DNA of 23,693 nt from Protoeuglena noctilucae. Lineage: Eukaryota. The position numbers and the translations under genes are program-made. The notes beneath the pieces were generated by a model. It saw nothing but the letters and a program-made list of their open reading frames with translations. It was not told where the DNA came from and ran no database searches. The stretch spans positions 1,674,001 through 1,697,693 of the forward strand of contig OY253670.1 in the NCBI GenBank assembly GCA_958009085.1, given 5' to 3'. Shown piece by piece: positions 2,101-23,693 of this stretch (its first letter is position 1; each line of letters opens with the position of its first letter).

Positions 2101-4160
2101 TCACTTGCGCCCGCTCGTCCCCTCCTCGCTCTCCTCGCTGTGCGCCTCGTGCACCGTGCCCGGCCGGCTGCTGTCGGCCTCCTGCGTCTCCTCGCTGGCC
2201 ATGGCGCGGCTGCCCACGCTCAGGCCGCTGGGGGACACGCGGGAGAGGGGGCGGACGCGGGAGGACCCGGGAAGGGGGCCCGTGAAGAGGGGGAGCGCCC
2301 CCGGCGACGGCAGCAGCGCTGGCAGCCCCGCGCCCGGCTGAACCGCGCTCGGCCCCGTCTGCGTGCCCACCGTGGCGGTCGAGGCGCGCCAGGGGCCGGT
2401 GCCGGGCAGCGCCGACGCCCACGGCGGGCTCGGCGCCTCCGCGGGCCCCGCCTGCACCCCCTGGGACCGCGGCCGCGGGGCGGGCGTCGACCGTGTGGCC
2501 AGGCTGCGGCGGCTGGGGGCCACCTCCGTCTGCGGGCAACGGGGGAGAGGGCACTGAGCGCGGGGGCAGCGGCGCGCGCGTCGGCAGCTCGAGAAACCCC
2601 GGCCACCCTCGGTGACCCCGGCATGCGCGTCCCCCGCCCCCCCACCTGCGCCACCCCCGTGCACTGGGGCGACCCGCACTGTCCGCAGCGGTGCTTGGCC
2701 CCCGCGGCCCCGGGCACGGCGATGGACCCCCTGGCGATGCGCTCGACGGTGCCGAACCGCAGCCAGCGCGTGCCGCACGCGTTGCACAGCACGGGCTTGC
2801 AGGGGGGGCCCCGGCGCCACTGGGGGCTCTCGCGCGTCCCGCAGTGCGCGCAGGGGCCCAGCAGCTCCTGCCGCCACCGCCGCCGCCGCTTGGGCGTCCC
2901 CGGGTCCCCCGTCGCTGCCGGCTCCAGCCCCATGGTGGCGTCGTCGTCCGCCTGCCCCGCCTCGTCGTCGTGGCTAGAGATCTCCACGGCGTCCAGCAGC
3001 AGGAGCAGGCCCGAGGTGCGGTCGCGGTCGAAGTCCCCGGAGCGCCCGGACGACGCGTGCCCCGCCTTCACGTGCCCCTCCGAGTTGCGCTTCAGCCGTG
3101 CCAGTCCCGCGTCGGCCGAGTGGCGCACCAGGCGGCCCTCGCCGCGCAGGGGCTGGCCGGGGCCGCTCCCCGCCCCCGGCGCCGCCTCCAGCGCGCTCCC
3201 CCGCCCCCCCGGCACCGTCCCCGTCTCGCTCGACCGCCCCTCGGACCCCTCCCCCTTGGGGCGCCGAGGCCCAGACTCCTGCGCCGAAGGGGGGCGCCCG
3301 CCCACCAGCCCGCTCTGCCGCAGCATCGCGCTCATGCCGCGCGCCGACGCCCGCTGCGGCCGCAACCCCGCCCCCCGCGGCTCCCCGTCCGCCCCCGACC
3401 CCTGTCGCGTGCGGCGCGGGGGCAGCCCCCCCGGGCAGCCCCCGCCGGCCTGCAGCACCTCGCGGAGGTCCTCGAGGTTGCGCGCGGCCGAGGCCCGGCG
3501 CGGGTTGGCGGCCAGCACCAGGTCGAGGGGCGGGCGCCGGGCGGGGGCCCACAGGAGCAGCGTGGACCGCCCCGGCTCCCCCAGCAGCGACAGCCAGGCG
3601 GGGAGGGCCTGCGCGTGGTCGGGGCGGTCCACGAGGCGCAGCAGCCCCAGCGGCACGCCGGCCGCGTCCTCGATGACCGAGGGGTCCGACGCGCACGCCC
3701 CCGCCAGCGCGGCCCGGGTGCCCTGGGGCAGCGACGCCAGCCACGACAGGGCGCCGGGGCCGAGGAAGGCCGAGGCGGGCGCGGGGGTGAAGGGCTCACC
3801 CGAGGGGACGTAGCCAGGCACGGCGCCCACCGTGGCCAGCACGGCGTGGGCCAGCGAGAAGCGGTCCTGGGGTCTGCGGGGGTGGGTGGGGGGAGGGCCG
3901 GGTCGGAAGGGAGCGGGGAGCGGGCTGCGGTGCACGCATATCGACGGCAGACGCGGCGGGGGGGCGGCCCCGCGCTCGCACCCGAGTCCCTCCAAAGCCG
4001 CGGCGAGGCCGGCGTGGTCGACAGGTAGTGCCCGAGGCGGGTCGAAGACGAGGCCCATCTCCGCCTCAAGCGCGTCAAGGGCTTCCTGGGGATCCATCAC
4101 GCCGCCGCGCCCAGCGCTGGGGCCGGCCGCGGGGCCGGGCGGAGGGCCCGGGTCGCCCAT
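2101..4160 (-). CDS. GATA-type zinc-finger transcription factor (~611 aa)
   Basis: [27 protein letters not shown] at 2852-2775 is a C-X2-C-X18-C-X2-C finger. Model: exons 4160-3982, 3873-2646, 2529-2101, all GT-AG and frame-consistent. A possible extra last exon lies at 2014-1933. The start codon and first intron are less certain. Confidence 0.85.
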
Positions 4161-5081
4161 CTGTCTCACCCGTGGCCCCTCCAGCAGGCGCTAGGAACTG
4201 CGGTGCCGGTCGTCCGCTCTATGGATCTGACAGGTCCGCGTCTTCTCCACCGTCTCTACCCCGCTGAATGTCGCCCCGTCCGGGGACGCGCGCATGACCG
4301 GAGGCTGCGCTTGGCTTGCCAAGTCGCTTCTGCGGGGACGAGGAGGCGTGTGCGCGCGTGCGCGAGCGGAGCACCGAAAGCGGGGCTGTGGAGGGCGCAG
4401 ATGCGTCAGGCGGGACCCCCTCCGCCTCCGCGGCCTCGGTGCGATCCGCGAGTCCGCCCATTATGCAAGCACCCGAGGGCGGGGGCGACAAGGGGTGCGA
4501 CACGGGGCAGCCCTGCTACAACCAATCCTCTAACGTGCGAGTTGTGAGCCCCGGGGCCCCGAGGGGCGAGGCCGCGGGGCAAGGGCAGAACGCACAGGTT
4601 TACACGATATAGGCCACCCGAGGCTCCTTGACGAACGAAACTCTCTCAATATATACACGTTTGGTTGACAGACACGACCGCTGCCCGGGAGACGGCGTCC
4701 AGGGCAGGCAGATCGCGGAGTTCGGGACGCGGCTCCCACGACTCGCCAGGTCACCTGGATGCTGGAGTCTGACGATCGTAGATGTGAGATGTGGCCCGCA
4801 CGCAGGACCCTTTTCGCCCGCGTGCCGGGCCGCGTCCTGAAACGCTTTGTCTGATGGCGATTGAACTCCCCCGAAGCTGGACTGCGAGTCCCGGACAGCG
4901 GACTCACGCCTCGGAGATCTGTGTGGCAGGGGAAGGCTGCGGCTGACCGCTGGGTCAGCACGTTGGCGCGATTTTCGCAGGAGAGGAGCGCCGCAGTGGG
5001 GGATTCCAGTTCCACGACGGGAGCACGGGAGCCATGCCATTGCACGTTCACAGCGCGAGTGAACACGCATCGCTGCCATTA

Positions 5082-7938
5082 ATGCAGCCGCGATGCGGCA
5101 CGCGGCATCTCTGCGGCCCGCAGCGGTCGCTGCCCTCTCTGCCCCGCCCTTGGCTGGCCCGCGGCACGCTCATCCGGTCTCCGCGACAAGGATCCCTTCC
5201 AATACGGGCCTGGTGGAGAAAAGACGCTCCCGCTCCGGGCGCGGATGGCCCGGACGACACGGCGGTGCGTGCCAGCGTGCTCGGCTCGGCACGCTCTGCC
5301 CTGCCCACCCCAGGAGTCCCACCCAAGCCGCCGTGCGCCCCGACCGCAGGCCCTGATGGACACCGGGGTGGACGCTGCGTCCCAATTCGACGTGCGCCGC
5401 GCGATCCTCCTGGGCCAGTGCGCCTTTGAGGCGTACGGGGAGCCGCGGGGGTCGCGGCTGGCGGACGTGGCCGTGGACGGCACGTGGGTCACGTACGCGG
5501 ACAAGGGATTCGTGGGCGAGGCCTTCTCGGGCGTCCTGGAGGTGCAGGCCGTGGGCAGCGAGGGCACGCCCCAAGGGGCCGACGCACGCCTGCAGGTCTT
5601 CTGCCGGGCGGGGTTCGCGGAGGCCAGGGGCAAAGCAGCGGTGAGGAGGCGGGGACAGACATGCGAGGAGTCACGGGTGGCCTATCCTCGGCCCAACCAG
5701 TGCCCCTGTGCTCCCTCCAGGGCAGCGGTGTGGACTGGTCGGGTGCGAGGGCGCGGGTGTTCCTGCCCCGGGGGGAGTCGCGGGTGCGGGTGCGCGTGGT
5801 CGGCGGCGGCGGTGGGCCCCTCTCCCCGGAGACCCTCGTGGGCGACGCGTACCTCGACATCGCCGAGCTCAGGTGGGAGAGGAGCGGCAGGTTACACGAA
5901 TCACATGCACTCATGGCGCGTGTCGCAGGTGCTTACCCGCCCCCTCCTCGTCTCTTCCAGGGACCGCATGGACAAGGTGGGCCCCTTCGCCGTCCTCCAG
6001 CTCCCCTCCGAGCACACCGCCATGCTGCGGGGTCCCAAGGGGCCGGCCGGCACGGTCCGCCTGCAGCTGCGGCTGTATCCCTTCGACCCCACCGTCACCT
6101 GGGACCCACCGAAGCCCATCGCGGAGGCGAGGCGCACCACGCGTGGCACTGTGTGGGTGTATGGCACCGTGCGGCATGCGATGACCAGCCGCTGGTGCTC
6201 TCTGCTCATTGGTCGCAGTTGCTGCGTCGCCTGCCGTTCGGTGAGAAGCAGGAGGAGGGCCCCATGGAGTCCGGGTGGCAGGCGCTGGCGGCGGCCGTGA
6301 GGGACGGCTTCCTGGTGCCGGCAGAGTACGTGCCCGTGGCATTCGTGGAGAACGAGCAGTCGGGTGAGGGAGAGGGGTGGGTGTGGGTGTATGTACGTGG
6401 GTGGGTATAATCGTGACCTCTGTTAAACACGAGCAATCGGTTCAACTGAGGGATGGATTTGTTCTAATTTCCCTACCGCCACCCCCACCCCCACCCCCAC
6501 CCCCTCTTGCAGACACGCAGGTGTGGGTGTACCGCGACCGCCCGCTCAAGGAGGTCGTGGTGTCCTTCCGTGGCACAGAGCAGGTCAAGTGGAAGGACCT
6601 GCTCACCGACCTCAACCTCATGCCCGTCGGACTGGAGCCCGAGGGAGCGGCAGCTAGGCAAGCGACTGCTGGCGTGCCACCTCCCCTGTGCTGCGTGACT
6701 CCACCACCCTCGCCTCCCTCTCTCCTCACACCCACACCCATTCCCTCTCCTCCTCTCAGCACCCCCACCCCCTTAGACCTCCTCTCCTCCGCCGCCTCTG
6801 CCGCCGCGGGTCTCCTCAGCAACAGCCCCAAGGCGCCGACGTCCAGTGAGGAAGCGCCGCTGATGGTGCACCGGGGCTTCCTCGAGGCCTACGACTCGGT
6901 CAAAGTGCGCGTGGGGCAGCTGGTCGACGCCCTGGTGGGGGACGGGAAGGACTGGAAGGTCCTCGTTACCGGTGAGGGGCGCTGCTGTGTTGCAAACATG
7001 AACATCGCAGTCAGTCACGGATGACCTTCCCATGCCTCGGTCACACTCACCCCCTCCTCTCTCCCTTCTCCCCAGGCCACTCCCTGGGCGGTGCCCTGGC
7101 CACCCTGGCTGCCTACGACCTGGCCACGCGCACCGCGGCGGATGACCGCCCACGACTCCACGTGGAGATGTACAACTTCGGGTCACCCCGCGTGGGCAAT
7201 GCAAGGTTCGCGGCAGAGTTCAACCGAGCCGTGCCCACGGCATTCCGAGGCGAGGGGCTAGGGCACTGCGGCTCGCGGCAGGGCATGCGCCGTGCGACTC
7301 GCTCCCTCACTTCCAAGCATGGACCTCATGTGACGAGGTCGTGTAGCATGCATGGCGACGGCATGAGACAGGCTCTTCCAACCCCCCGCAGTGACCAACA
7401 GCCGCGACATCATCTGCACGGTGCCCAAGCTGCTGGGGTACGCGCACGTGGGGACGGAGGTACGGCTGTCGGGGGACGGGTCCCTCAGGCGAGTCATGAA
7501 GTGGGAATGGGACATGGTCTGTGCAAGTGGGTGCGCGTGGTGAGTGACACCAGCATCGCCATGCGCCGCGCCCGCAGCATCGGTGGCCGCACGGTGTTGG
7601 ACGGGGAGGAGACGGCGCAGTTGGCGGAGAAGCTGACGGAGGAGTTTCTGGGCCGGGGAAACGAGGTGTCGAAGGGGCAGGTGAGGGGTGGCATGGCATG
7701 CTGGTGGATGACTGAGTGGATGGTTGGTCGGTGTTGGCGCAGACACAGACACAGGACCATTAGATGTCCCTCGCTTTCTCAGCTGGAGCGCATCGTGGAG
7801 GAGGAGATGGCCATTCTGCGCAACCTGGCCGACGGCAGCGCGCTGAGCGAGCACATGGAGGACTGCTACCTCAACGCCCTGCAGCTGGCCGTCACGGGGG
7901 GGGTGGTGCCTGGGCAGGAGCAGAAGGGGCGGGGGTGA
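5082..7938 (+). CDS. Class-3 lipase with transit-peptide-like leader and C2-like region; resembles plant HIL1/At4g13550 (~607 aa)
   Basis: Exons 5082-5264, 5350-5640, 5721-5872, 5961-6126, 6219-6363, 6513-6657, 6760-6971, 7076-7249, 7392-7488, 7578-7680, 7783-7938 (1824 nt, in frame). Motifs: VVSFRGTEQVKWKDLLTD, VHRGFLEAYDSV, VTGHSLGGALATL (catalytic Ser), NFGSPRVGN, RVTNSRDIICTVP (Asp), EHMEDCY (His). Four donors are GC. Confidence 0.92.
6478..6503. repeat. Intronic (CCACCC)n microsatellite
   Basis: About four tandem CCACCC units just upstream of the acceptor at 6512. Confidence 0.7.
7250..7391 (+). other. GC-AG intron in the lipase gene
   Basis: GAG|GCGAGG...CCGCAG|TG. Removal restores the conserved FR-V-TNSRDII motif without insertion. 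Confidence 0.85.
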
Positions 7939-8082
7939 GGGTGAAGTGTACTGTGCGGGCGCAGAGAGTGCGTTTGAATGGATGCGCGAGGGAGGGTCGA
8001 GGACCAGAGGCGCTGCGCCCGAAATGCTGCGTGCGCGCTGCGGCTGGTGCCTATCTCAAACAGGCGTGGGTTGCGCGTCGCG

Positions 8083-9539
8083 TCAGGGGGTGGGGACGCC
8101 CGCCGTCGGGGCCTCCTGCCCCGGGGCGAGGAGCGTGACCTGGGTACAGAGCATAGCAGGGACGGTGTCGCATGGTGCAGTGCGATGTGCATGCCCGGTG
8201 AGCCACCCGTGCCACTTGCATGCCGCGCCTCGCCTGGTCATCGAGGATGTGACGGACTTGCGCGAAGCTGGTGGCGAAGAAGTGCGGCTCGGACTCAGTG
8301 CCCCTCAGGCAGTCCCGCTGCTGGGGTGCCGCGAATGCGCCGTACGAGTCGAGGAGCACCGTCAGGGCACCGGCCCTGCGGCCGAAGGGGACGTCGTCGC
8401 GGGCACTGTCCCCGACCATGAGCACCTCCGAGGGGGGGATGCCCTGGGGGTGGGGAGATGGGCAGGGTCGAGTGGACTGATGGATGTGTCGTGGGGTGGG
8501 GAGAGGGACAGGGATGTCAACCATGCTGCAGAGTGCAACAAGGGTGTTTTCGAGACCATCCATTGCGCACCCATGCGTCGCAACAGGCCAGCAGGGCGTC
8601 CGGGTGGGGCTTCACGCGGTGCCCAGAGTCACGGGAGATGGCGGGGGCGAAGGGGCTGCGGGAGGGGCAGAGAGATACGAGAGAGTGGCAGATCGCGGCC
8701 AATCGCACCCATGGCCCGCTGCTGCCTCGTAGTGAACGTCACTACTCCCATCGTGCTCACGGGAGTGGGAAGTGGTGTCGGTGGAAGTAGTCGAGGTTCT
8801 CTTGCGCATTCTGGGTGACCACGGCCCTGGGGATGCCCCGGCGGTCGAGGTCCGCGCACTGCAAGGGACGCGGCATGTAGCAGCGTTGGTGAGGCCAGAC
8901 AGGGACCCCCAGCTCAGATGACACGCTCGACCCCGCCACACCCTCACCAGCTCCAGCACGCCCTCCGTCACTCGCAGCTTGACCAGCGCCTCCCGCTCCA
9001 TCTCCCGAATCACCGCGCGCGCCGCCGACTGGCGCTCCGGGTCCCACGCAGCAATCGTCTCCAGGATGTGCGCGCCCTGCGATGGGCGTGGCGGCCGTGT
9101 GGGTGTGAGCGTTTGCGGGCAGGCGAGGGGCCACCTGCGGCTCATCAAGGCGAAAATGGGCAGACAGGGCCCTCACCGGTGCAAGGCCTATCCGCCTCCG
9201 CATCTCCGCGAAGTCGAAGACCGGCGCCGTGAGCGTCCCATCTGCGGCAAGTGGATGTGCGTGTCGTCCGATGGGAGCCGCCGGCCGGCTGCATGCGGAA
9301 GCTTCCATTACGATCGCCAGGCTATCGGAGCGCGACTCACCCATATCCCATACGATGCCGCGCACGATGGGGTGCCCGGATACGCCCGTGCCAAATGGCG
9401 CCCCTGCGGCGCGGCTCTCCTCCAACCAAGGGGAGTGGGAAGCCGTCGACAACATGATTTGCTTATCGCTCGGTCGACGAAGCCATCGAAGCGCTGCCGC
9501 CAGCCGGTCAGGCCTCTGGAATGCTCGCATCCATCGCAT
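8083..9539 (-). CDS. HAD-superfamily hydrolase (At2g33255/YOR131C-like, ~280 aa)
   Basis: Exons 9539-9341, 9241-9177, 9076-8948, 8858-8761, 8655-8571, 8443-8234, 8139-8083 (843 nt). Spliced motifs: IVWDMDGTLT (I), VVTQN (II), KPHPD (III), MVGDSARDD (IV). The last intron has a GC donor. The start could also be 9530. Confidence 0.9.
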
Positions 9540-9847
9540 CCATGCACTCGCTGCCCCGTCGCGCGGCGGGGTGACCCGATGAAAGGGGTTGGGTTTGCTA
9601 TGAATGCGACATAGCAGACTGAGCTGTCCGGGACGCAGCAGCGCTGGCAAATCGTTTCTCAGCGCCGGCAGCCGCACCGGTGCCAGTCCTGGCTTGCACC
9701 GACAGACTCCGTGACCCGATTGACTCATGGGAACTGCCGAGCCATGTCGTGGAACATGAAAGAGTATCGTGGGCTGGCGGCAAGTGAAGCTGGGCGGTCG
9801 GTTCAACGGCTGCAGCGTCTACCCATCCGCCATGCCCCCCTGCGCTC

Positions 9848-10547
9848 TTAGGCCGTGACCTGCTCGCGCAGACGCCTGATGGTCGACCGCACTGTCACTG
9901 CGAGACACAGAGGCACGGCAGGGAATGCTCAGCAAAGGCACTGCCAATCATTTCGTCGCGGTGGCAGCCGCACCCCTGCTTCTCCTTGCGCTAAGAGGAC
10001 AGCAGCGTCGTGCGCCCGATCCCCACCACCCGTGGTATCGTCCGCGCTAGCAGCCGCACTAACCCCCCGCGCTGACAGCCGCCCAAGCCCCGCCCGTCAC
10101 CTGATGCCGCCGTGTTGTACACGTACGCCCCGCCCGCCTTGGACTTGTTGCAGTGCTTGCAGCCCCAGATGCCGACGGCGACGCGCTGCGGGCAACGCAT
10201 CGACTCTCGTGCGCATGAGGCCACGGCATGAACACAGAGGCAGGACACGCTTGCCGGCTGTCCCCTTCTCATGCCAAGTGCGACCCCGCCCCGTCCATTG
10301 CTCCCCTCATGGCTACCAGCCTTGCCACCACCGACCGTGCGTCATGCCGACCGCCCACACACGCACCCGCCCCGGAAGCACCACCGCCAGGGGCGCCGCT
10401 CACCTTCATGGCGTACTTGCCGCAGAACTCGCACAGGTACTTGGAGTGCTGCGACACCTCCATCTTCTTGATGACCTTACGGATGGAGGCACCGTAACGG
10501 GTGCCGTACTTGCCGACGATCCCGACCTTCTTGGTGCGCTTGGACAT
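9848..10547 (-). CDS. RPL37A: 60S ribosomal protein eL43 (L37a), 92 aa
   Basis: Exons 10547-10404, 10185-10101, 9897-9848 give [24 protein letters not shown]...[22 protein letters not shown]...[27 protein letters not shown], with the C4 zinc ribbon and canonical length. Confidence 0.98.
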
Positions 10548-11772
10548 CCTGTGGAAGTAGGGCGAGCAGGAGAGTTGAGAAAGCCGGCGCGAGGCAGCAA
10601 CGCGACTGGGTGGAGGGAAGGATTAGCCCGAACGACCGAGGGGACGCAAGCGCCGGGCGAGGGGCAGCAGGCGCGGCGACGGGTGCCCCGTGCAGCCGGT
10701 CCCCAGCCTCTCGTGGGCGCCGCCGGCATCCGCCCTGCCCCGCGCCGTCCATGCCACCCAACGCATCCATGCAGCACAGCGGCGGAGGGCGGGACGCTCC
10801 AGGGGGCGGTGAAACGCGGGCCAGCAGCCGGGGAGAACTCGCGGGCGACCCGCGGAGCAGCCCGCTCTCCGGAAATACCGACCGACCCATCAAAGGAAAG
10901 GTACAAGCGGCACGACAGCGGAGAGCGCGCAGTCGCTCTGCAGCGGCTCGAGGTGGCTGCCACCGCGACGCCACGACGCGCGCGCGACGCCCCGGCGCAA
11001 GAGCAAGCACCGGTCGCGCTTCGAAAGCGAACCGGGCACGCTGCGCCGGCCAGGGCCCCGAGGAGAGCCCCAGGAGGCGACCAAACCGAGTTGCGCCCCG
11101 GCCAGGCCCCGGCTGCTGGAGCTGAGATGACGCGCGGCTGACATAGGAAAAAGGATGCAAAGGTGACGCCGGCAAAGACCAGGAGGCCCTCGGAACCCAC
11201 CTCCTCTGCGCCCACGCTCGCCGACGCCGGGATTCGGCCTGTGAGAACCAAGCGGAGGGTCCGAGATGCGAGAAAGGGAGAGGAGGGGGCGCGCGGGGAG
11301 GCCATCCGTGCGACCCAGCGTTTTCTGGCAAGACGCATTTTCTGACATGTGAAGGTGGACGCACCGAGACAGGTTTTGAGGGTCGGGGATGGCGTAAATG
11401 ATGATATAATGCGCACGTGCACCACCGCATTTAACTAGAGAGGCTGCTAGGAAGGCGTCCCATCTCCGCTGACTCTGCAGCGTTGCTGGAAGCCTAGTGT
11501 TTGTCTCCGAAACGTTGAGGCTGGGGAGGCTTGGGGCGTGCTCCCCCCGCACCCCCTCGACACATTTGGCACTGCGCGCCGCGAGCGTGGCCAAATCAGG
11601 GCGAGGGGGTGAGTGAGTATGGGTGCGCCCTCTCCAGGCCATAACTTGCATTGCCGTTGTCACGCTGGTAGGCTGGCAGCGTCATCCCGGCCATCCTAGC
11701 GACGTCCCCGATGGCGCACATTTCCAGCCTCGCGCGTCGCTGCCCACGCAGTCGTTGGGGGTGTGAGCAGCC

Positions 11773-12687
11773 ATGGATGCTGCCGCGATCGAGTCCTTGT
11801 CGAAGCTTTTTGATGTAGGAGAGAAGGCGGTGGAAAAAGGTGAACGCCTACGCACTGGTGCTTGTGTGTGTTTCCCGACTGTCCTTGCTGCTCGCACCGC
11901 CTTCACACATCCGCCCGTCGCAGATGTGCAAGTGTCGGGAGCGTCGCGGGGTTTGAACCCAGGTGGCATCGGGGGCATCATTCCAGGGGTCAAGGTCAAG
12001 GCACCGCGACGAGACCCCAAGGTGCCATGTGACGCAGAGACCCTGCCCTCACCGCTGGTGTCGTGTGCGCAGGCATCGAGTGCCACGCCCCCGCTCCTTA
12101 GCTGCCCCGCAGGCCATCTGGGACGACGACGAGGTCCCGGAGGTGGTGGTGGACGAGGTGGACGACGGGAGGGAGCGTCCGGCGCATGAGTTCTACGTCA
12201 AGCAGGCCGTGGGGACGCAGGACGTCTTCTTAGGCCTCAGCCTTAAGGTGGGGCGCGAGGTCATCGCTGGGGGGGCAGCGCAGTCTCAGCGTCACCTGGT
12301 GCTTGTGAGGCCATCTGTGCCTGGTGCCTCGCAGGACCCCTCGTCCATGTCATGCGAGACGCTGGTGGTGGAGGTGTCCCTCCCGGGCACCGCGTCCGCC
12401 CAGGAGATCGACCTGGACGTGCAGGAGAACTACCTGCGCGTGGCGACGGCGCGGTACAAGCTGGGCACCTTCCTGCCTCAGAGGTGAGGGCAGGAACACA
12501 AATGGCGGCTGAAGTGGCGCTGGGCGAGTGTCCTGGCGACGCGGCCCTCCTCACCGGGTCGCTCTGCGTGCCGCTCAGGGTGCGCAAGGACAAGGGGAAG
12601 GCCGAGTGGATCAAGGACAAGGGCGTCCTGAAGCTGGAGCTGCCCTTCATCAGCGACATGCTGGAGATGATGGGAGGGGGGAGCTAG
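11773..12687 (+). CDS. DNAAF6: Axonemal dynein assembly factor DNAAF6/PIH1D3 (Twister), ~185 aa
   Basis: Exons 11773-11839, 11924-12021, 12113-12247, 12335-12483, 12579-12687 (all GT-AG, 558 nt). Motifs: DPKAIWDDDEV...DDGRERP...KQAVGTQDVFLG..KDPSSMSCETLVVEVSLPG, and CS-domain end GKAEWIKDKGVLKLELP. Confidence 0.88.
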
Positions 12688-13051
12688 CTGTCGGGTTGAG
12701 AGCTCGGAGATGCGGGGTTCCCCCGCTCCACGCCTCCACCCGCATCTGTCGTGCAGCCTCAGGTCGCGCCCGACTCCCTCGGGAGTGCCCTGCCTGCGTC
12801 ATGATCTGGCAGCTGTTGCTGCTTGAGGAAACTAAACTCCTTGATGCTGCCGTGTACGACATCAGTCGTTCACGCCGCCTCCGCTTCGCTCTGTGCCGAG
12901 ACTGAGTGTGTTTTCTATCAGCCGCGATTTTCATCTGAAGTTCTGCAGCTTTTGGACTCCAACTTTGTTTCATCGGCTGGTCAGAACGATCGCGCACTCT
13001 CTTGACGTAGGCATCTGATGCGCTGCGCGTGGCTCTGACGGGATCAGCGCG

Positions 13052-15524
13052 ATGGCGGGGACCGAAAGCGATGTGGAGAGCGAGGGGCCCGATGCCGTGG
13101 GCCCGGCCTCCGTTGACGCGGGAACGCAGCCGGGTGCATGGTTCTACCTCCACCCTGGCACTCAGCAGACATACGGCCCATATACCGTGGCCAGTGAGGA
13201 GCGCGCTCCGTGCCTGGTCTAGCAACGACCATCGCCGCGTCCGGTGCGCACGATCCGCGCTGCGAGGTCCATCCGCGCAACGTAACGCTATTGTACATCA
13301 TGCAGGCCTGGTCGAGCTGGCGCGGTCCGGCTTCCTCGTGCCGTCGCTGCCCTTTGCCCATGCGGGAGGGCAGGAGTGGGCCGCCCTGAGCGACGTGGCG
13401 GAGCTGAGGGGCGTGTATGAAGCGATACCGGAGGAGATGGCGAAGGTGCGTTCACGGGAGGCGCGTGGGACTTGGTTGGCAGCCTGTACTGGGCAATCCA
13501 ATTCATGCAGTGCCCCGCGCTTCTCGGGCAGGTCGCCGGACAGCCCGCGGCCGCGGACTCGGCGCCGGGCGCCTCCCAAGCCACCGCAAGACAGCCATCA
13601 AGCCAAGGCGCCGACGGCCGGGACGCGGATGCGCCTGGGCCAGCGGGTGCCCCCGACCGCTTACAGGCGCACCTGGCCAAGCGGCAGCGAGCGACGGTGG
13701 GGCAGAGGGCCGAGACCGTGAGCCACGCGGACCTGGACATGCTGCGCTTCCAGACGGAGGTGGCAGGCGAGATGTCATGGTAGTCACTGCATACACTGTG
13801 CCTTCCATGGCCGTGCTGGGGGGTCAGGGCGTGTGTCGCACAGCGCTGCCCGCAGGGCTGATGGGCCGGCCCCCGCCCACGGCTGCTGCGGCTGCCCCCG
13901 CGCCCGTGCCTGGCCCTCCTGAGGAGCGTGAGTTCGTGGATGACGATGGGACGCGGTACGTGTGGGACGAGCGGGAGGGGCGGTACGTGCCAGCACCCGC
14001 GGGGCCCGTCCCCACCTACTCGGTCGACGACATGGTGTTCCAAGCAGAGGGGACGCCGGCGGACCCGGTGACACCTGCAGGGGGACCAGCACCCACTGTG
14101 TGCCAGCACGCGCATGTGGTGGCACTGTGCTGGCTGTCATGGCGCGTGCCAATGAGCCCCTGACCACCCCCGCAGCCGACCAAGGACCCTCCCCCCGCGG
14201 ACCCACCCGGCAAGCCCCCCCAGGCCCACACCACCACGTGCGTCTACATCCAGGGCCTGCCCGATGACGTGACGGAGGAGGAGGTGGCAGAGGTGTTCTC
14301 CAAATGCGGCATCATCCGGGAGGATGAGAACCGCGTCAAGAAGATTAAGGCGAGGCGACGGGGAAGGGATGCTGAGGGATGCGGGGCGGGGTCGCCGGCA
14401 ACATCAGCATGGCGCTGTTCCCGACGCAGATTTACCGCAACAAGCAGACGGGACGGCCCAAGGGGGACGCCCTCGTGACCTTCCTCAAGCGCCCCTCCGT
14501 GGACCTGGCGCTTCAGATCCTGGACGGCGCGCCCTTCCGCCCGGATGGGCTGCCCATCAAGGCGAGTGAGGGTGGTGGGGAGGGGCGGGGCAGGGGCGGG
14601 CTGCCCATTATGGCGAGTGACTTAGGGTGGTGGGGAGGGGCGGGGCAGGGGCAGTCACCGCGTCTGCCTGTATGGCATTGCTTATCGTGCATTCAACCTC
14701 GTCTGCAGGTGATGGAGGCGCAGTTCGACGACAAGGCGCAGGGGGGAAACGACCGGGGCGCGGAGCAGGGCGGAAAGGCCAAGGGGAAGGTGGGCGGGAC
14801 TGCGGGTGCGGGAGATGGGCGACAGCGCTGGTTGTGCAGGTGTTGACCGCTGTCCGTCCCCTCGCTCGCAGCCCGGCGTGTCCCGGGGCTCCAAGCGCCG
14901 GCGCACCCCTGCGCAGGAGCAGCTGCTGCACTGGGCGGGGGACGACGAGATGCAGCGCCCGCAGGAGGTGGTGGTGGTGCTGGAGGGGGTGTTTGACCCC
15001 CAGGACATGGCGGTGGGGACGAGGGAGAAGAAGGAGGCGCTGCTGGCGGCGCTGATGAAGGACATGGCGCGGTTCGGGAGGGTCGACAAAGTCAGGTGCG
15101 ACGGTGGGGAGAGACTGCGATGTTGTTGTCTCGCCATCAAGCTCTCCGTCCGTCGACCCACCCCGCGTGTCCCCTTCTTCTCCCTCCCAGGGTCTTCCCC
15201 CAGCACCCCCAGGGCGTGTGCACGGTCAAGTTCATCGACGGCGACTGCGCCACGGCCGCGGTGGAGGGCATGGACGGGGGCGTCTACCGGGGACGCACCC
15301 TGCGTGCGTTCAAGTGGGACGGAAAGCGCAAGTTCGCTGCGGAGAAGGTGCAGGAGACGGAGGAGGACGAGGCGAGGCGACTGGAGGCCTTCTCGCGGGA
15401 GCTGGAGGGGGAGGAGGGAGGGGCGGAGGCGGGGGCAGGGACGCGGGGGGCTGACGCGGGCGCAGAGGCACAGGGCGCTGCCTGGGGTGACGACGAGGAC
15501 GACGACGAGGGCTGGCACCACTAG
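13052..15524 (+). CDS. HTATSF1: U2 snRNP-associated splicing factor Tat-SF1/CUS2 (plant ELF9-like): GYF_2-like domain, RRM and UHM-type RRM, ~557 aa
   Basis: Exons 13052-13193, 13306-13445, 13532-13766, 13856-14067, 14176-14349, 14430-14561, 14709-14789, 14872-15095, 15191-15524 (1674 nt). Motifs: WFYL...YGPYT...EWAALSDVAEL, EFVDDDGTRYVWD, VYIQGLPDDVTEEEVAEVFSKCGIIRED, KIKIY...KGDALVTFLKRPSVDLALQILDG, HPQGVCTVKF...WDG...EARRLEAF. Three donors are GC. Confidence 0.92.
14350..14429 (+). other. GC-AG intron in the Tat-SF1 RRM
   Basis: AAG|GCGAGG...ACGCAG|ATT restores KIK-IY. No usable in-phase GT donor exists in the interval. Confidence 0.88.
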
Positions 15525-15626
15525 TCACCGCGAATTGCAGAAACATGCGGGGCGGCGAGGCCATGGCTCCTTCAACCCCGGCCGGGGCGCCTGTGTGCGG
15601 ATCCTAGTGCATCATACGCGCGACGC

Positions 15627-16152
15627 CTAGCTGGGCGGGAAGAGCTGCGAGTTGATGACGATGCCGGCCAGGCCGATGAGCACGAGGTCCTTAACAGCGG
15701 TGGCCACGATCATGCCCGTCGGGCGCTGCGGGAGAGGCAGGAATCGGCCGCCCCTCGCCGCGCCGCGGACCCGGCTCCGGCCCGCCCAGCACGCGGGCGT
15801 CTTCTTAGGACCACAATGCTTCACGCGCGCTGCCCCCACCTTCTCGTCCGCGTTCATGTCGGGCTTGAGCTCAGGGTACAGGTCCGTCCACCGGCGAGAG
15901 TACTTGCGTGCGACAAACTCCCTCACGTCCCCCGCAGCCTTGGCCTCCACGTTAGACGCTGCGGGAGAAGCACATCGCTGGTTGCCGAAGGTCGCTCGCA
16001 GGGCCACGAGGACGCAGGGAGGCGACAAGGGAGCAGGACGAGGCTCCGCTCGCTGCGCACGCTTGCTGCCGGGGCAGGTCGGTCCTGTGCTCACCGAAGC
16101 CGCGGCAGGCGCCGAGGCCGCGCGCGGCGGCCCTCGCCGCGTTCCCAAACAT
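15627..16152 (-). CDS. Small unidentified protein (91 aa) with mitochondrial-type presequence and C-terminal hydrophobic helix
   Basis: Exons 16152-16095, 15958-15840, 15725-15627, with GT-AG introns in matching phases. Product: MFGNAARAAARGLGACRGFASNVEAKAAGDVREFVARKYSRRWTDLYPELKPDMNADEKRPTGMIVATAVKDLVLIGLAGIVINSQLFPPS. Third codon positions are strongly G/C. Confidence 0.75.
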
Positions 16153-16694
16153 CGCCCCCGCTCCCGCTCCACTCCCCGCTCTGCGTGGGCGCTCAGGCGC
16201 GCTGATGACCACGCTACGTGCCCATGCTCATCACAAGCGTCTTCCACGCGCGCATCAGGGCAACCGCGCGCCCTTCCCTGCCTCACCGGGCCCAGACTGT
16301 GAAACTCGCTGCCGATCTCGGCTCTTGGCCCCCCTCGCTCTCTGACAACCCCCTGACGCACAAAACTGGACGGGCGAGCTGCCCGATGGACGCCATCGGC
16401 GCGCGCCGCGGAACACGGACGTCTGGCGCGCCACTGGCACTTCAAGTCGGCTCTAAATGCTCCCCGCGGCATCCAAGTCCGCGTGTTTTTCATCCATGAT
16501 CCTGTGGCGCGATCGCTGCGCCCGCAGAGGCACGCTCCTGCACGCAGTGGCCATCGCGTTCCGCCACGCCCCGTGCTCGCCGCCTTCCAGTGTTCCCGTC
16601 GAGCCCTGCGAGTCTGGCGTCCCCGAGACTCTGAGCTGAGTCCCGTTTTCGGGCCTGAGGCCGCGGCCGGTGGGCCGCGAGGGCGGGAGAGGCC

Positions 16695-17977
16695 ATGGAC
16701 CCGGCCGAGGAGCAGGCGATGGAGATCGAGGCGCTGCAGGCCATCCTGATGGACGACCTGCACGTGTACGAAGGGAGGGTGCCGGACGTAAGGGCCACCT
16801 GCCGGGGCCGGGCACTCTAGGCCGGATATTGCATTGCGAAAGCAGACGAGGCACGCCCGAGCCGCCCCTCGCTTGCAGGGCTGGCCCGCCGACGCCCAAA
16901 TCTACTCGATCATCCTGTCGCCGCTCGAGGACGGCAGCGTGGGTGAGCAGCGCCCGCTGCCACTTGCCAGACGCCCGGCCCCGCAACCCTGCGTCACTGC
17001 AGCCACGCCACCACCTTTTGTCCCCTGCAGAGCGCGACAAGGCCCCGGCCCTGCTTCAGTTCCTGTTTGCGCACACCCCCGGCTACCCCGCCGAGCCTCC
17101 CCTGGTGCGCCTTCGCAGCGAAAAGGGCCTGAGTGACGCGCGGGTGGCGTCTGCTTCTGCCGTGGTGGACCGCGTGGTGGGGGAGCACCTGGGGACGCCG
17201 ATGGTGTATGACCTGATCACGGCGGCGAGGGAGTGGCTGATGGAGGCAGCGGGGCAGGCGAGCGGGGAGCGGGAGCGGACAGGAGGGTGTGACGTGGGTG
17301 GTGTGCGTGCGTAATGAGTGCAGTGGGGTGCCCATGGCTGCAGGCGACGCAGGAGGCGGAGGACGAGATGGACCACGTCAAGGCACGGAAGAGGGAGGAG
17401 AGGGAACTGAGGGACAGGGAGGCGCAGGTGGGGGGAGGGGAGGGGGCAGGTGTGGGAGTGGGGCAGCGATGGCGCATGTGTGTGTCGCCCACCCCTGTGG
17501 TCATCCCGTGCCTGTCCCCGCAGCGCGCCAAAGGCACCGCGGTGACCCCCGCGTCGTTTGCGGAGTGGAAGGAGCGCTTCGACGCCGAGGCTGCCCTCCA
17601 GCAGGCCAAGCTCATGGACGTGCGTGCGCACGAGGAGCGGATGAAGAGGCCCACGGGGCGGCAGTGGTTCGAGGCGGGGAAGCACGCGGCAGACGAGGAG
17701 CCGCTGGGTGAGAGGGTGTGGGTTGCTGTGGTGGGGATGGTGACTGTGTGTGTCTGCATGCTCATGTGATGGTGATGGTCGCGTGTGTTTGTGCTCGGCA
17801 GGGGAGGGGGACGAGGACGGCATGGACGGCATCGGGGAGGGCGGGGACAGCGACGAGGACGACGACGAGGGATTCCTGGCCGCGTATGGCAGGGGAGGGG
17901 AGGGGAGCGACGGGGATGTGTTTGACGATGATGATGACGATGAGGACGATGAGGACTACGTCGAGGGGGAGGACTGA
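16695..17977 (+). CDS. RWDD1: RWD-domain protein RWDD1/Gir2 (DFRP2, DRG GTPase partner), ~275 aa
   Basis: Exons 16695-16787, 16879-16942, 17031-17257, 17344-17427, 17524-17707, 17802-17977 (828 nt). Motifs: EEQAMEIEALQAI, YPAEPP, LGTPMVYDLI, GTAVTPASFAEWKERF, PTGRQWFE, and an acidic tail. One donor (17258) is GC. Confidence 0.9.
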
Positions 17978-18138
17978 TCAAGGGCGGGGGAACCTGATAT
18001 GGCGTGTGTTTCATGTACACATCACGCGTGCGTTGAAACGCAATGCGAGAGAAAGAAACGCTTATGCGACACAGCAAACGTGGGCAACACCAGCAGCATC
18101 CCCAGGCGCATCCCTGGCCAGGCATCTCCCCGCCTCCA

Positions 18139-21100
18139 TCACCGCCCGTATGCCGGCCCCGGTGCGATGGCCATGAGTCCCCCCTGGTCGCCGCCTCCCC
18201 CCACGGGCCCCCCGCTCGCCTGCAGCGGGGCGTGGCACAGGGGGCAGGCCACGTGGCCCAGCACGTACTCGCTCAGGGAACTGCGGGATGAAGACGGCAG
18301 GAGAGTGTCAGCCATGCGGGCAGGCACATGGGGAAAGCCCCCACACAGTGCCTGCTTGAACAGTGCAGTGCCTTCCCACACAATGCCTGTCCCTCGCCTG
18401 TGCCCGCAGGTGCGGCACTTGACGGCCGACCGCGTGCCCAGGAGGTGCCCCGAGGACACGCACACCCCGCTGCGGATCTCCGCCGCACGCAGACGCTCGG
18501 CCTCGTCCGTGGGGTCGCGGGGCTGCAAGGGGCGACGAGTGGATCACAGTCGCATACACGCACACGTGGAGTGCCCAGGCTCGTAGATGCTCTCATCTGC
18601 GCCTCACCTGGTGCTGCGTGAAGATGGCGAAGGCAAGCTCCGTGAGTGCCTCTGCCTCGGCCCCCTTCCCCCCCCCCATGAGCTGCAGCCGCGTGAATGC
18701 CCGCGAGCACTCCCCCATGTACCCCGCGTAGAAGGACGTCAGGGCCAGCACCGAGTGCACCTCGCGCGCACCCAGCGCGGACTCGAACTTGACAAGGTGG
18801 ATGGCTGCGCGCATGCCGCCCTCGAAGTCGCCCTCGTAGATGCCGCGCAGGGCCATGAGCCAGAAGTGCCACGCCAGGGCGCCGTCCCAGGCGCTGCCCA
18901 CCTCCCGCACCGCCATCTGGGGGGGGACAGAGATGCACGTTGTTACTCAACGGCGCACCCTGCACCTCCACCCCACCTCCGCACACCCATCGGCCATCCC
19001 GGCTGCTCCCACCCCTACTCCTCACCCCGGATGCGTCTGCCTTCATCAGCACCTCATCAGCACCCTCATCCACTCCTCACCTCGGATGCGTCTGCCTTCA
19101 TCAGCCCCGCCAGCGTCTGCTGCGTGGCGTTCCCCCCCCTCGCCCCAGCTCCCACCATTGTCTGCCCCGCCCGCGTCGCCAGCCGCGTGGCGCGCGACGT
19201 CACCCCCGCCGCCGCCCCCCCCACCTCCGCCGCCAGCGACCGCCGCTTGAAGGCCTCCACCTCCAGCGCCGCCAGCACGTGCAGCTTCTTCATGCGCAGG
19301 GGGGGCGCCCCCCTCTCCCCCGCCTCCCTCGCCACCTCCAGCAGCAGCTTGGCCGCCTCCAGGTGCTCTAAAGCACGTCGGTACAGGTCCACGGCGCGGA
19401 AGGTCTGCTGCCGGGCGCGCAGCTGGCTGGCGTGGCGCACCAGCACCTGCGCCGCCTGGCCGTAGTCGTGCTCCTGGGCCAGGTCGACGGCGATGTCCCA
19501 CTCGTGCAGCGCGATGCAGCAGTCGATGGCGCGCTTGACCTGCCCCGCCTTGAGGAAGGCCGTCACGGCCGCGTCGCACACGCCCGCTGCCGCGAGCTTG
19601 TCGCCCAGGGCTGGGGGGAGGGGGAGGGGGGGATGGGGGTTGGCTGTCACCTGAAACGGAAGGGGGTGGGGGAGTGGTGGAGAGGGGTGAGCGGTGGGTG
19701 GACTGGGGGGAAGGGGTGAAGGAGGGAGTGGCGCAGAGGGGTGATGGGCGAGGAAGTGTACGATAGAGGTGGATGCTAGAGTGAGAGTTGGATGCCTGCA
19801 CGCGATGCCACCGACGCGTGACTCACTGAGCAGGAGCGGGTCCCCCTCGGTGAGTGCGTCGATGAGGCTCTCCAGTCCCTTTAAGTCGTCCAGGCGGTGG
19901 AAGCACTCCAGCGACTGTGCGGAGTTCTTGGCCATGACGAAGTAGCGCACCGCCTGCCGCCACGCGCCCCTCTCGGCGTAGTGCTCGCCCAGTCCGTTGA
20001 AGGCGCGGGTGCGGAGGGCGTCGTCGCCGAATCCACTGTCGAGGAACTTGGCCACGTGGAACCAGTCGCCCAGGCGCACGCGGAGATCCAATGCCAGGTC
20101 CACGCGGTCCATCTCCACTAAAAGGGCCTGAGAGAGAGAGAGAGAGAGAAGGGGATCGTGCACTGCCACTCGCAGCTCAGCACAGCCACGCCCCAGGCAA
20201 ACGCGGTGACGAAAGCCCGCCCTTACATGTGACGCCAGTGCCTGCCAGTGACTGCACCCACACCTCTGCCACAGTGCATGTACAACCACAGTGCTCCACT
20301 CACCTCCGCCTCGTCGAATCTCTCCAAGAAGGCCAGCGCCTCGGCCCTCTGCTTCCACGCCTCCCCCAGGCCCCGCAGCCGCTTCACCAGCTGGATGCCG
20401 TGCCAGTCGCGGCCCTGAACGGTCGACGCAGAGAAGCAGGCGTCACAGACAGGCATGCGGTGTCACAGAAAGGCACGCGTTACAAAGAGAGAGAGAGACG
20501 CCATTGGTAGAACAGCATGGCATCAGCCACTCCCCTGCTCTCCCCACCTGCACGAATGCGCGGTCTGCCAGGTCCAGGTCGAGTCTCTCCAGGGCCGTCT
20601 CCGCCACCACGCGCCACAGCCGGGGGTGCCCCGCCTTGCGCATGAACTCGAGCAGGTCGTCGCGGGTGCCCTGGGCCAGCAGCGACCGCGCCTGCTGCAG
20701 GGGACGCGTCTCCACACGCTGCACCCACGCGGGCTGCGGGTCGGCGCCTTCCCCGGAGCAGAGGCGGTCCACGTCCACCACCGTCACTGCGAGGGGGCGA
20801 TGATGCATGTAAGTACTCTTAAGCACGCCAGCGCAGACCAGACCCTCGCATGCGCCACCACCCACGCAACCATGCAAGTGCTGATCGATCACCCCCGCCC
20901 CTCCCTTCTCACCCGTGAGTCCCTCGAATCGTGCGATGTACGACGAGCACGGCACGGGCTCCTCCGCCTCCCCGTCCCGCATCACCACCAGCCGCGCCTT
21001 CTCCATCACCGCCTGGGGGTGGGGTGAATGAGACAGGGTCAGTCCGACACCGTGGCATGGGTCCATGCATGCGTGCATGCCAAGCACACACAGAGAGAGA

Positions 21101-23227
21101 CAAAGAGTCATGGCATGCATGACACATGCCACCATGGCACACGGCAGCAGCCCAGCACTCACGAGGCTCAGGGGGTCGTCCTCGGCCCATGCCACGTCCC
21201 ACACGTCCCTGCGCTCCACCCCCAGGTCCGTGGCTGCGCACCCCGCCACGCCCAGCTCCAGCCGCTGCACGCACAGCGCCCCGTGGTCCAGCACCGCCGC
21301 CAGCCGCGTGCCGTCGCAGTTGGCCGCCAGCCGCGCGGGGGACGCGGGCAGGGCCAGGCGCCCCAGCAGCCGCATGTCCGACAGCTGGTACACGGCCACG
21401 CCCCCCGAGGCCCTGCCCACGAAGAGGTGCGTCGCGGACAGGGCCACGCACGTGGCGGGGTCGGCCGTGCCGGCGGGGGTGAAGCGGTCCAGGGCCCAGT
21501 TGTCGCTGGTGCTGCCGGCGTCGACGGAGAAGATCCACTCCGAGCGGCGGGAGGGGGCGGGGGGGGCGCCGGGCCTCGCGGCGGGCGGCAGCCGCCACAC
21601 GAACACAGCGTCGTGGCTGGCGGCGGCGAAGAAGGCCTCGGTCATGGCGGCGGCGCGGAGGTCGACGGAGAGGGCGTGCTCGGCGAGGGGGGTGCCGATG
21701 CTGTCGCACAGGGACGCCACGCTGCCCCCCGCCTCCCCCCGCGACACCAGCACCGCCGCCGCCCCCGCCGCCCGCAGCAGCGACAGCCGCGGGGCGGGCT
21801 TCACCACGGCGTCGCCCGACCGCGGGTCCCAGAAGACCACCTGCGCGGGGCCGCGGTCGGGGCGCGCGGCGAAGGCCACGGTGCCGTCCGCCAGCGCCCC
21901 CCACCGGTGGTCGGGCCTCACGGTGGCGAAGTAGACGAAGGCGTCGACAGCGGCTGCCAGCCTGAGCCCCGTGCCCTCCCATGAGACGCTGGAGAGGGAG
22001 GATCCGGGGAGCTTGAGGCTGCGGAGGTGGGTGCCGTCGTGGGAGAAGAACTCAACCACTAGCGCTCCCCCTTCAAGGGACGCGGGGGACATGCCCTGGG
22101 GGACATGGGGGGAGGACATGGGTGTGGAACAGGACATGAGTATGGGATGCAGACATGCTTTGTAGGAGAGCAAAGGAGTGGCAGTGGATGCCATGCCCCC
22201 CTCTCTCTCTCACCGGCGCCTTGAGCCCCCCCGCCACGAGGAGGACGTCGCCCGTGGGGGACCACCTCAGGTGCTGCAGGCGCAGACCCGTGTCGAGCTC
22301 GATGGGGCTGGGGTCGCGGTGGCCGCTCATCAGCTGCACGTGCCCCGTGCTGATGCCCACGGCCAGGCACGCGCACCCCTCCTCGGGGTAACCGCGGGTG
22401 CCCGCGTACCACTCCACCGCCACGATGCGCGCATTGGGGCGGCCCTGCGAGGACAGGGGGAGTGGGCCACGGCAGTCGTTGTCAGGTCACACCCAGCTTC
22501 TCCATGCACGGCACGCCACCTTGCATCCGCATCCCCGCCCCCTCTCCCTCACCTGCAGCACTGCGAGAGGGACCTGCTGGATGGCGTTCCCGCTGGCGTC
22601 GTACAAATGGCACTCGGTCTCGGTGCAGAAGAGGATGAGTCGGCTGTCCGGGGACCACTCCACCAGCGCCAGGTTGGGCAGGGCTCAGGTCCTTGCCCCA
22701 CAGGCGCTTGCCGTCCACGGACCCCACGATCACGGCGGCGTCCGCGTACGCGATGCAGATCTTGAGGCCGTCCGCCGACCACCGCATGTCCCGCACCGTC
22801 GACTTGTTGCGGTTGTTGATCATCTCCTCGTACCACTGCCCGTCGTGGAACATCCACACAATGATCATGCCGGACTCATCTGAAGACGTGAGCTTCTGGT
22901 ACTGGTCGTTCCAGCGCACCACGCGCACCCCCTCCTGGTGGCCCGCCAGGCTCTGGTTCATCGTCAGGTTGACGCCCGCGCTCCCGGGGTCGATCTTCAG
23001 CACCTTCAGGAGGCCCTTGTCGCCGCCGAGGGCCACGAAACCCTCCGTCATGCTCCAGGCGATGCACCTGCGCGGCATACGGAGACGGGGGTCCCGGCGG
23101 GGCGCGGCGGGCCTCAGCATGGCAATGAGCGCTCGGGTTGCAGGGCCCTCCACGGCCCCGGCGCGCGGGCTTGCCTGGGCATGATGCCGTCGGGGATGGC
23201 GATCTTCTTCGAAAGGTACGCGTTCAT
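18139..23227 (-). CDS. IFT121: Intraflagellar transport complex A subunit IFT121/WDR35 (~1195 aa once a 1-nt frameshift near 22682 is corrected)
   Basis: Exons 23227-23175, 23067-22553, 22444-22214, 22095-21163, 21012-20913, 20786-20548, 20414-20304, 20127-19827, 19610-19081, 18916-18608, 18522-18398, 18280-18139. Diagnostic segments: [43 protein letters not shown]...[32 protein letters not shown], and a C-terminal CPLCH zinc site. Confidence 0.95.
18281..18397 (-). other. GC-AG intron in the IFT121 C-terminal zinc site
   Basis: CAG|GCGAGG...CCGCAG|T. Removal gives CRTC-X14-CPLC. The intron is 117 nt and stop-free, so the call rests on motif spacing. Confidence 0.8.
19017..19105. repeat. 34-bp direct repeat (33/34 identical) duplicating an IFT121 exon end and splice donor
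   Basis: 19017-19050 actcctcaccccggatgcgtctgccttcatcagc versus 19072-19105 actcctcacctcggatgcgtctgccttcatcagc. Confidence 0.9.
20130..20149. repeat. Intronic (GA)n microsatellite acting as the minus-strand pyrimidine tract
   Basis: GA dinucleotide run adjacent to the acceptor at 20130-20128. Confidence 0.75.
23068..23174 (-). other. GC-AG first intron of IFT121
   Basis: CAG|GCAAGC...GCGCAG|G gives [23 protein letters not shown], colinear with the WDR35 N-terminus. Confidence 0.85.
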
Positions 23228-23693
23228 CCTGGGAGGCTCAACTCAGCGGGGGGACGCCCCTAGAACGGTCTGCGTGCAGAAGGGCATGTGTCGGGCCTGC
23301 CGAGGGGCGCGGCCGGATCTGTCAGGAGAGACGCTCGCCGCCGAGACGCGTGATGCGATCACCGACAACAGCGACGGCGCGGGGCCCGGTAAATCGGCAG
23401 AGAGCGCAATTCACCTGCGCCCGTCGATGGCCGGGGCGTGGCGCGCCCTTGCGGCAGACCCCGGGGGAATCACGGCTCGACAATGGCACGCCTTCGTTCT
23501 GGATGCAGAGGTCACGGACAGATGACCCGGGGACGCCGGCGCTGCGCCCCCTCAGCCTCCGGCAAGGGTTTGAACACTCGTCGCGTGCCACAGGCCCCGT
23601 CCCATGCGCGCCTGACTCGCGCTCGCGGCAGCGTGACGGGCTGGGCTCCTCCTTGTCACCGTGGACCCCGGTGACAGGTTAGAGATGCTCTCT

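Follow-up and report, generated by a model that had tools for sequence, protein, structure and literature searches.

GC-AG introns at full-consensus donors make up about one fifth of the introns in a GC-rich nuclear window of Protoeuglena noctilucae

GC-AG introns account for a mean of 1.2% of introns across 121 plant genomes (PMC6310983) and for 0.37-0.86% of U2-type introns in five model species (Sheth et al. 2006, PMC1557818), where compensation by the flanking donor positions is established and a distinct motif, GCATCC(T), is defined for U12-type GC donors. Much higher shares are described in GC-rich algae. For example, in Emiliania huxleyi (65% GC) GC donors reach 56-65% in curated sets, gene models based on GT-AG are wrong, and the authors explain the GC donors by the high GC of the genome (Feldmesser et al. 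2014, PMC4028052). Among pelagophytes with genomes of 63-70% GC, the predicted GC-AG share is about 14-17% in Aureococcus anophagefferens and about 14% in Pelagomonas calceolata, against 0.32% in their low-GC relative Aureoumbra, and here too GC content is credited by the authors (bioRxiv 10.1101/2024.10.30.620910). Moreover, genome GC correlates with the GC of splice sites (PMC7072748). A background of about 1% in plants and animals with high values in some algae, stated in an earlier note made from the letters of this DNA, matches three of these works (PMC6310983, PMC1557818, PMC4028052). We analyzed the 5' splice sites (donors) of a 23,693-nucleotide (nt) stretch of Protoeuglena noctilucae DNA (assembly GCA_958009085.1, contig OY253670.1, positions 1,674,001 to 1,697,693 of the forward strand), the whole of which is called the window below, and found that about one in five of its introns starts with GC. 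Since a GC-AG excess has already been published for other GC-rich algae, a specialist will be only mildly surprised by the share itself.

The window is eukaryotic nuclear DNA with a high gene density and short introns. Its G+C content is 63-81% per 1 kb and about 68% across most of the region, with 66% in intron interiors, so that this window, at least, exceeds the level of about 60% G+C in nuclear DNA that goes with a high GC-AG share in other GC-rich lineages. Ten genes were modelled across it, with family names from Pfam, and open reading frames were obtained for all ten models. These genes contain 53 introns, of which 42 are GT-AG and 11 GC-AG; no other donor type occurs, and the acceptor is AG in 53/53. 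The GC-AG share is therefore 20.8% (11/53; 95% confidence interval 10.8-34.1%), and at a rate of 1.2% the probability of such a count would be 4e-11, or 6e-7 for the 26 junctions fixed by RNA (six GC). The earlier note had counted 11 GC donors among about 52 introns, about one fifth, spread over five unrelated genes; the recount agrees, all 11 AG|GCRAG strings (R, purine) are found where it had placed them on either strand, and the five genes are those of a Lipase_3 protein, an HAD hydrolase, an RRM protein, an RWD protein and IFT121/WDR35. The heptamer AGGCRAG itself is overrepresented: the two strands together contain 17 copies, whereas 100 dinucleotide shuffles gave 8.66 +/- 2.52 and none of them reached 17. 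Within gene spans the sense strand carries 13 copies and 11 of them are the donors; the remaining two (15372, 18219) are located in last exons, and the protein fragment P0241, which derives from complementary DNA (cDNA), reads straight across the former.

Compared with the model eukaryotes of Sheth et al. (PMC1557818), the introns of the window have the same GC donor, the same AG acceptor and a stronger match to the U1-complementary consensus at the other donor positions, and GC-AG introns of this sort are treated as a subtype of the major class and not as a separate mechanism; the differences are the share, 0.37-0.86% there and 11/53 here, and position +3, which here is nearly always G in both donor classes. 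E. huxleyi is alike as a GC-rich marine alga with AG acceptors, but its donors are mostly GC, with some GA as well (PMC4028052), whereas here GC donors are a minority of about 21% and no further type is present in 53 introns. E. huxleyi is also a haptophyte, while the best named protein matches of the window are green algae. Pelagophytes are alike in combining a high GC-AG share with high GC, but their genomes have less than one intron per gene (bioRxiv 10.1101/2024.10.30.620910), whereas here there are 53 introns in 10 genes and 10 in a single gene of 623 codons.

The RNA evidence comes from four metatranscriptome runs (X9-X12), whose contigs were placed on positions 3694-23693; between 34 and 48% of the sampled words of this region are present in the runs, and bins without contig cover were not used as evidence. 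Joint counts refer to the 15 RNA joints listed out of 54, each of which has one canonical-like placement, GT-AG in 13 and GC-AG in two. A protein search with one exon of the lipase gene gave P0001, the 623-residue open reading frame of a 1899-nt Logan contig, which is 100% identical to the exons of the window and maps exactly to 11 of them; the enumeration of all cuts yields six GT-AG and four GC-AG introns. P0241, a 140-residue fragment from the same organism obtained by a representative protein search, spans the last intron (GT) of the RRM protein gene and confirms it. RNA joints or cDNA-derived proteins fix 26 junctions, 20 GT and six GC, and adjoining pieces of X10 record 4 supply an additional GT junction, 19826..19611. 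For the 11 GC introns, absence of the stretch from mature RNA is direct in six, follows from the total skip of one contig in three and from ortholog spacing in two.

Direct evidence confirms six of the 11 GC donors. Four of them belong to the class-3 lipase gene (5034-7938, forward strand; Pfam Lipase_3, E=1e-28), which was mapped with P0001 and has 10 introns: intron 4 (6127..6218, 92 nt, GAG|GCGAGG), intron 6 (6658..6759, 102 nt, TAG|GCAAGC), intron 8 (7250..7391, 142 nt, GAG|GCGAGG) and intron 9 (7489..7577, 89 nt, CAG|GCGAGT). GC..AG is the sole canonical-like cut in all four, and P0001 reads PIAE|LLRRL at intron 4 and AFR|VTNSRD at intron 8. The fifth is the last intron (8140..8233, 94 nt, donor CAG|GCGAGG at 8233) of the HAD-like hydrolase gene (7973-9539, reverse strand; Pfam Hydrolase_like), whose open frame has six introns, one of them GC-AG, and six RNA joints; the joint 8138>8233, present in X9, X10 and X12, allows six equivalent cuts, among which GC..AG (8233..8140, reverse strand) alone is canonical-like. 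The sixth is intron 3 (17258..17343, 86 nt, CAG|GCGAGC) of the RWD-domain gene (16695-17980, forward strand; Pfam RWD), an open model with five introns, one GC-AG, and three RNA joints; here the joint 17253>17340, in the same three runs, allows nine equivalent cuts and 17258..17343 is the only canonical-like one. Among the nearby GT donors that the earlier note had named as possible alternatives, those at 6151 and 7292 are ruled out as main forms by the mapping of P0001, and that at 17294 by the joint 17253>17340. Seven loci related to P0001 were found, at no more than 52% identity apart from a value of 70% over 30 residues; in the GC-rich relatives L003 and L007 no readable donor was present at the divergence point.

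The GC donors differ from the GT donors in their flanks. All 11 have A at -2, G at -1, a purine at +3, A at +4 and G at +5, and the full consensus AG|GYRAG (Y, pyrimidine), which they all carry, is found in only 8/42 GT donors (Fisher p=1e-6); AG at -2/-1 is present in 21/42 GT donors. Over seven flank positions the mean number of matches is 4.91 for GC and 3.69 for GT donors (Mann-Whitney p=4e-5). Both the invariant flanks of GC donors and the greater tolerance of GT donors, which had been proposed from the letters, are thereby borne out, and in the subset fixed by RNA the full consensus is present in 6/6 GC against 2/20 GT donors (p=1.2e-4). None of the 11 starts with the U12-type GCATCC; all read GCGAG or GCAAG. 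The +3 position is G in 41/42 GT and 9/11 GC donors, giving GTGAG and GCGAG and not GTAAG, and the donor consensus as a whole is shifted towards G+C.

Composition at +2 follows the same division. Among full-consensus donors GC is used in 11/19 (0.58), and among weaker donors in 0/34. The ratio C/(C+T) of intron interiors is 0.612, from which 11/19 is no different (binomial p=0.82). Since GC donors occur only at full-consensus flanks and their share there equals the intronic C/(C+T), the data fit GC pressure acting on a nearly neutral +2 position. We therefore consider, with a probability of about 80%, that these are ordinary U2-type introns of the major spliceosome, present in an unusually high share as a consequence of GC pressure and flank compensation. 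C at +2 would cost one pair with the 5' end of the U1 small nuclear RNA (snRNA) and would be tolerated only where -2 A, -1 G, +3 R, +4 A and +5 G are all at consensus. At such strong donors T and C at +2 would be nearly neutral with respect to each other, and GC-biased mutation or fixation could fill the position with C as often as it does other pyrimidine sites of introns, while at weaker donors T would stay obligatory. That GC pressure turns T into C where the flanks are strong had also been suggested in the earlier note; the flanks and the share of C (0.58 against 0.61) agree with it, whereas the direction of change, like the role of U1 pairing and the dispensability of special machinery, is something that we infer.

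A stronger version of this explanation would be that the spliceosome of the lineage is indifferent to U or C at +2, provided that -2, -1, +3, +4 and +5 are at consensus, and that the site drifts to the neutral pyrimidine ratio (0.58 observed, 0.61 expected). We hold it as a tentative idea that is rather doubtful at present. If true, the GC-AG share would be the fraction of full-consensus donors multiplied by the neutral C/(C+T), a product that could predict GC-AG frequencies across GC-rich eukaryotes, and this would be the first intron-dense, green-alga-like genome with about one fifth of its introns GC-AG. Neither the flank rule nor the agreement with the neutral C/(C+T) was found in the available passages of the pelagophyte preprint (bioRxiv 10.1101/2024.10.30.620910).

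An adapted 5' splice-site machinery, raised as a possibility in the earlier note, with changes for example in the U1 snRNA 5' end, U1-C, the U6 ACAGA box or Prp8, might instead accept C at +2 and explain a share beyond that produced by mutation pressure alone. The GC share at strong flanks (11/19), as high as the neutral 0.61, suggests little or no cost of C, and G at +3 in 41/42 GT donors, with a consensus shifted towards GC, points the same way. Full flanks are nevertheless still required, with 0/34 weaker donors being GC, as they are in organisms with standard machinery according to the passages available from PMC1557818. We regard such an adaptation as improbable, and it is not needed by the data. 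An Rfam scan of the window gave no family at threshold and no snRNA.

The five GC donors supported indirectly lie in two genes, and for them the question is whether ordinary GC-AG splicing or an error of modelling is the better account. Three are in the RRM protein gene (13052-15524, forward strand), an open model of 557 residues with eight introns, Pfam RRM_1 on three pieces, and a putative HTATSF1-like identity: intron 3 (13767..13855, 89 nt, CAG|GCGAGA), intron 5 (14350..14429, 80 nt, AAG|GCGAGG) and intron 6 (14562..14708, 147 nt, AAG|GCGAGT). One contig, X9 record 23, covers 12577-13193 with its letters 666-1282 and 15188-15674 with its letters 2478-2964; between 13194 and 15187 it has 1195 letters for 1994 genomic ones, so that 799 nt are skipped. 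The modelled introns of 112, 86, 89, 108, 80, 147, 82 and 95 nt add up to exactly this number. Moving a donor to the GT at 13760 or at 14335 with the acceptor kept would give 806 or 814 nt. A broader claim, that the total of 799 nt forces GC donors, was dropped after enumeration, which found about 2e14 GT-only paths; the total is not unique and therefore tests named alternatives only.

Orthologs supply the rest of the evidence for this gene. Splicing from the in-frame GT at 14335 would remove five residues, which all of the aligned orthologs (19/19) retain, and the junction IK|VMEAQF at 14562 lies in an alignment of the 19 orthologs with no indel. The junction at 13767 falls inside a motif, F-x2-E-[VI]-x2-[LI], common to 7/19 orthologs, with exact spacing. 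Given the other seven introns of the gene, no canonical 89-nt cut except 13767-13855 lies within +/-40 nt, and removal of this intron takes out an in-frame TAG after the exon. An unspliced X11 contig over 13445-13845 shows no differing letters, and C at +2 is therefore present in that library too. A protein search with the last exon of the gene, restricted to longer proteins, gave no match, and an exact 40-mer of the gene had no match among metagenome contigs.

The remaining two donors are in the IFT121/WDR35 gene (18137-23227, reverse strand; Pfam WDR35/TULP4 N-terminal and TPR_IFT121), which has 11 introns and gives an open model of 1195 residues when base 22681 is dropped. They are those of the first intron (23068..23174, 107 nt, donor CAG|GCAAGC at 23174) and of the last (18281..18397, 117 nt, donor CAG|GCGAGG at 18397), and both are predicted from homology rather than from RNA. 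Use of the GT donor at 23153 would add seven residues that are absent from 12/12 IFT121/WDR35 orthologs; in tblastn the ortholog residues 1-18 run up to 23174 and residue 18 onward starts from 23069, and an RNA piece ends at 23066, adjoining the acceptor of this intron. The intron at 18397 is in frame and free of stops, and its retention would add 39 residues within the C-terminal CxxC...CPLCH motif, again absent from 12/12 orthologs; with the GC model the spacing CxxCxH-x11-CPLCH is exact. The protein search with an IFT121 exon returned 804 orthologs and no protein from the same organism.

Several points weigh against our reading, and those that concern the indirect donors are the substance of the view that some of 13767, 14350, 14562, 18397 and 23174 are modelling errors, the cell using a nearby GT or keeping the in-frame intron at 18397. 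None of the five is among the joints listed; the 18397 intron could be retained with its frame intact, and both 14335 and 23153 offer a GT donor that keeps the frame. Moreover, besides the GT-only paths, about 2e21 paths with GT and GC donors also keep the frame and sum to 799 nt, so that very many other intron sets match the contig total. Because contigs lose rare variants, they may also hide some splicing from nearby GT donors or some retained introns. The five donors came from a motif-led reading of the sequence, which could inflate the flank rule, but the subset fixed by RNA still shows it. The neutrality comparison is based on 19 donors; the RNA runs all come from one study, with at most three samples; and the sample is 53 introns from one 23.7-kb window, the share being that of the window rather than of the genome. 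As regards modelling errors, the orthologs (19/19 against 14335, 12/12 against 23153 and 12/12 against retention at 18397) and the length of the contig skip, which is neither 806 nor 814 nt, speak against the alternatives named, including the GT donors at 13760 and 23153 that the earlier note had put forward; in addition, each of the six GC donors open to a direct check proved correct. We thus judge such errors highly improbable. Editing of C to U at +2, which would restore GU, was considered and rejected, as the unspliced X11 contigs over 13767 and 18397 carry the genomic letters, weak evidence given possible DNA carry-over.

That the window is a local outlier, with a genome-wide GC-AG level of only a few percent, finds some ground in the sampling of 10 genes and in the fact that 4/11 GC donors belong to one gene, but the GC donors are found in 5/10 genes, on both strands and across 17 kb, and the probability of 4e-11 at a 1.2% rate and the lower 95% bound of 10.8% make it a very remote prospect.

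Ordinary GC-AG splicing at this frequency has mainly a practical value, for annotation; the flank rule and the agreement with the neutral ratio add a modest conceptual gain. With GT as the assumed donor, gene finders would break or misplace about one fifth of the introns, in half of the genes of the window, and the annotation of this organism or of its metagenome bins needs GC donors to be enabled; a warning of such mis-annotation had already been given from the letters, and it matches what is described for E. huxleyi gene models in the available part of PMC4028052. In this small sample the GC-AG share appears to be set by base-composition pressure and compensation through U1 pairing together, and if the flank rule and the neutral ratio hold genome-wide they provide a testable quantitative rule.

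The full-length IFT121 model was also used to place the lineage. Its best named matches are green algae, namely Pedinophyceae sp. YPF-701 (45%) and Tetraselmis sp. GSL018 (42.6%), with fishes at about 39%. These matches, among which there are few named protists, weakly suggest the green lineage, and they constitute weak evidence against membership of the haptophytes or pelagophytes. Among titles and opening abstract lines, no report was found of a green alga in which the GC-AG share is high, in a search that was partly not tied to the GC-AG term and that left subscription journals and supplements outside.

Some further observations concern the IFT121/WDR35 gene. One base of the window, 22681, is absent from the RNA contigs of X9 and X12; when it is kept the frame is broken, and when it is dropped the 1195-residue frame is open and aligns with orthologs, so that the extra base reflects an error in the assembly or else an allele with a frameshift. 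A base at 19911 is missing in X12 alone, and at 19882 X9, X10 and X12 have G instead of T. A tandem duplication of about 55 nt, comprising the exon end and the 5' splice site, is present in 2/53 introns: RRM intron 6 (14547-14652), where Tandem Repeats Finder (TRF) gives a period of 55 with 2.0 copies and 89% matches, and IFT121 intron 9 (19005-19108), a direct repeat with a spacing of 55 and 86% identity. According to the gene models the upstream copy would be the donor in use in both cases, with which a loose end of X12 at 18918 agrees for the IFT121 intron.

The other genes of the window, named by Pfam with one exception, are a mitochondrial-carrier gene (1-545, reverse strand), a GATA zinc-finger gene (2103-4160, reverse strand), the gene of ribosomal protein L37ae (about 9791-11215, reverse strand), a PIH1-CS gene (11773-12692, forward strand) and a modelled gene for a small protein with no family match (about 15592-16330, reverse strand). 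X9 record 23 is unbroken over 12577-13193, where it connects the last PIH1-CS exon, a spacer of 360 nt and the first RRM exon, which indicates that the two transcripts abut or overlap, or that there is read-through. At 652 nt, the first intron of the L37ae gene (10549-11200, reverse strand) greatly exceeds the other 52 in length, and it has no Rfam family match. Contigs of two RNA libraries lie in it (X9 record 22 at 10723-11161 and X11 record 8 at 10521-11187), and they could stem from retention of the intron, from DNA carry-over or from an RNA that has no annotation. Finally, a stretch of T directly precedes 9791 in an X11 contig, which fits polyadenylation of the L37ae mRNA (reverse strand) at this point.

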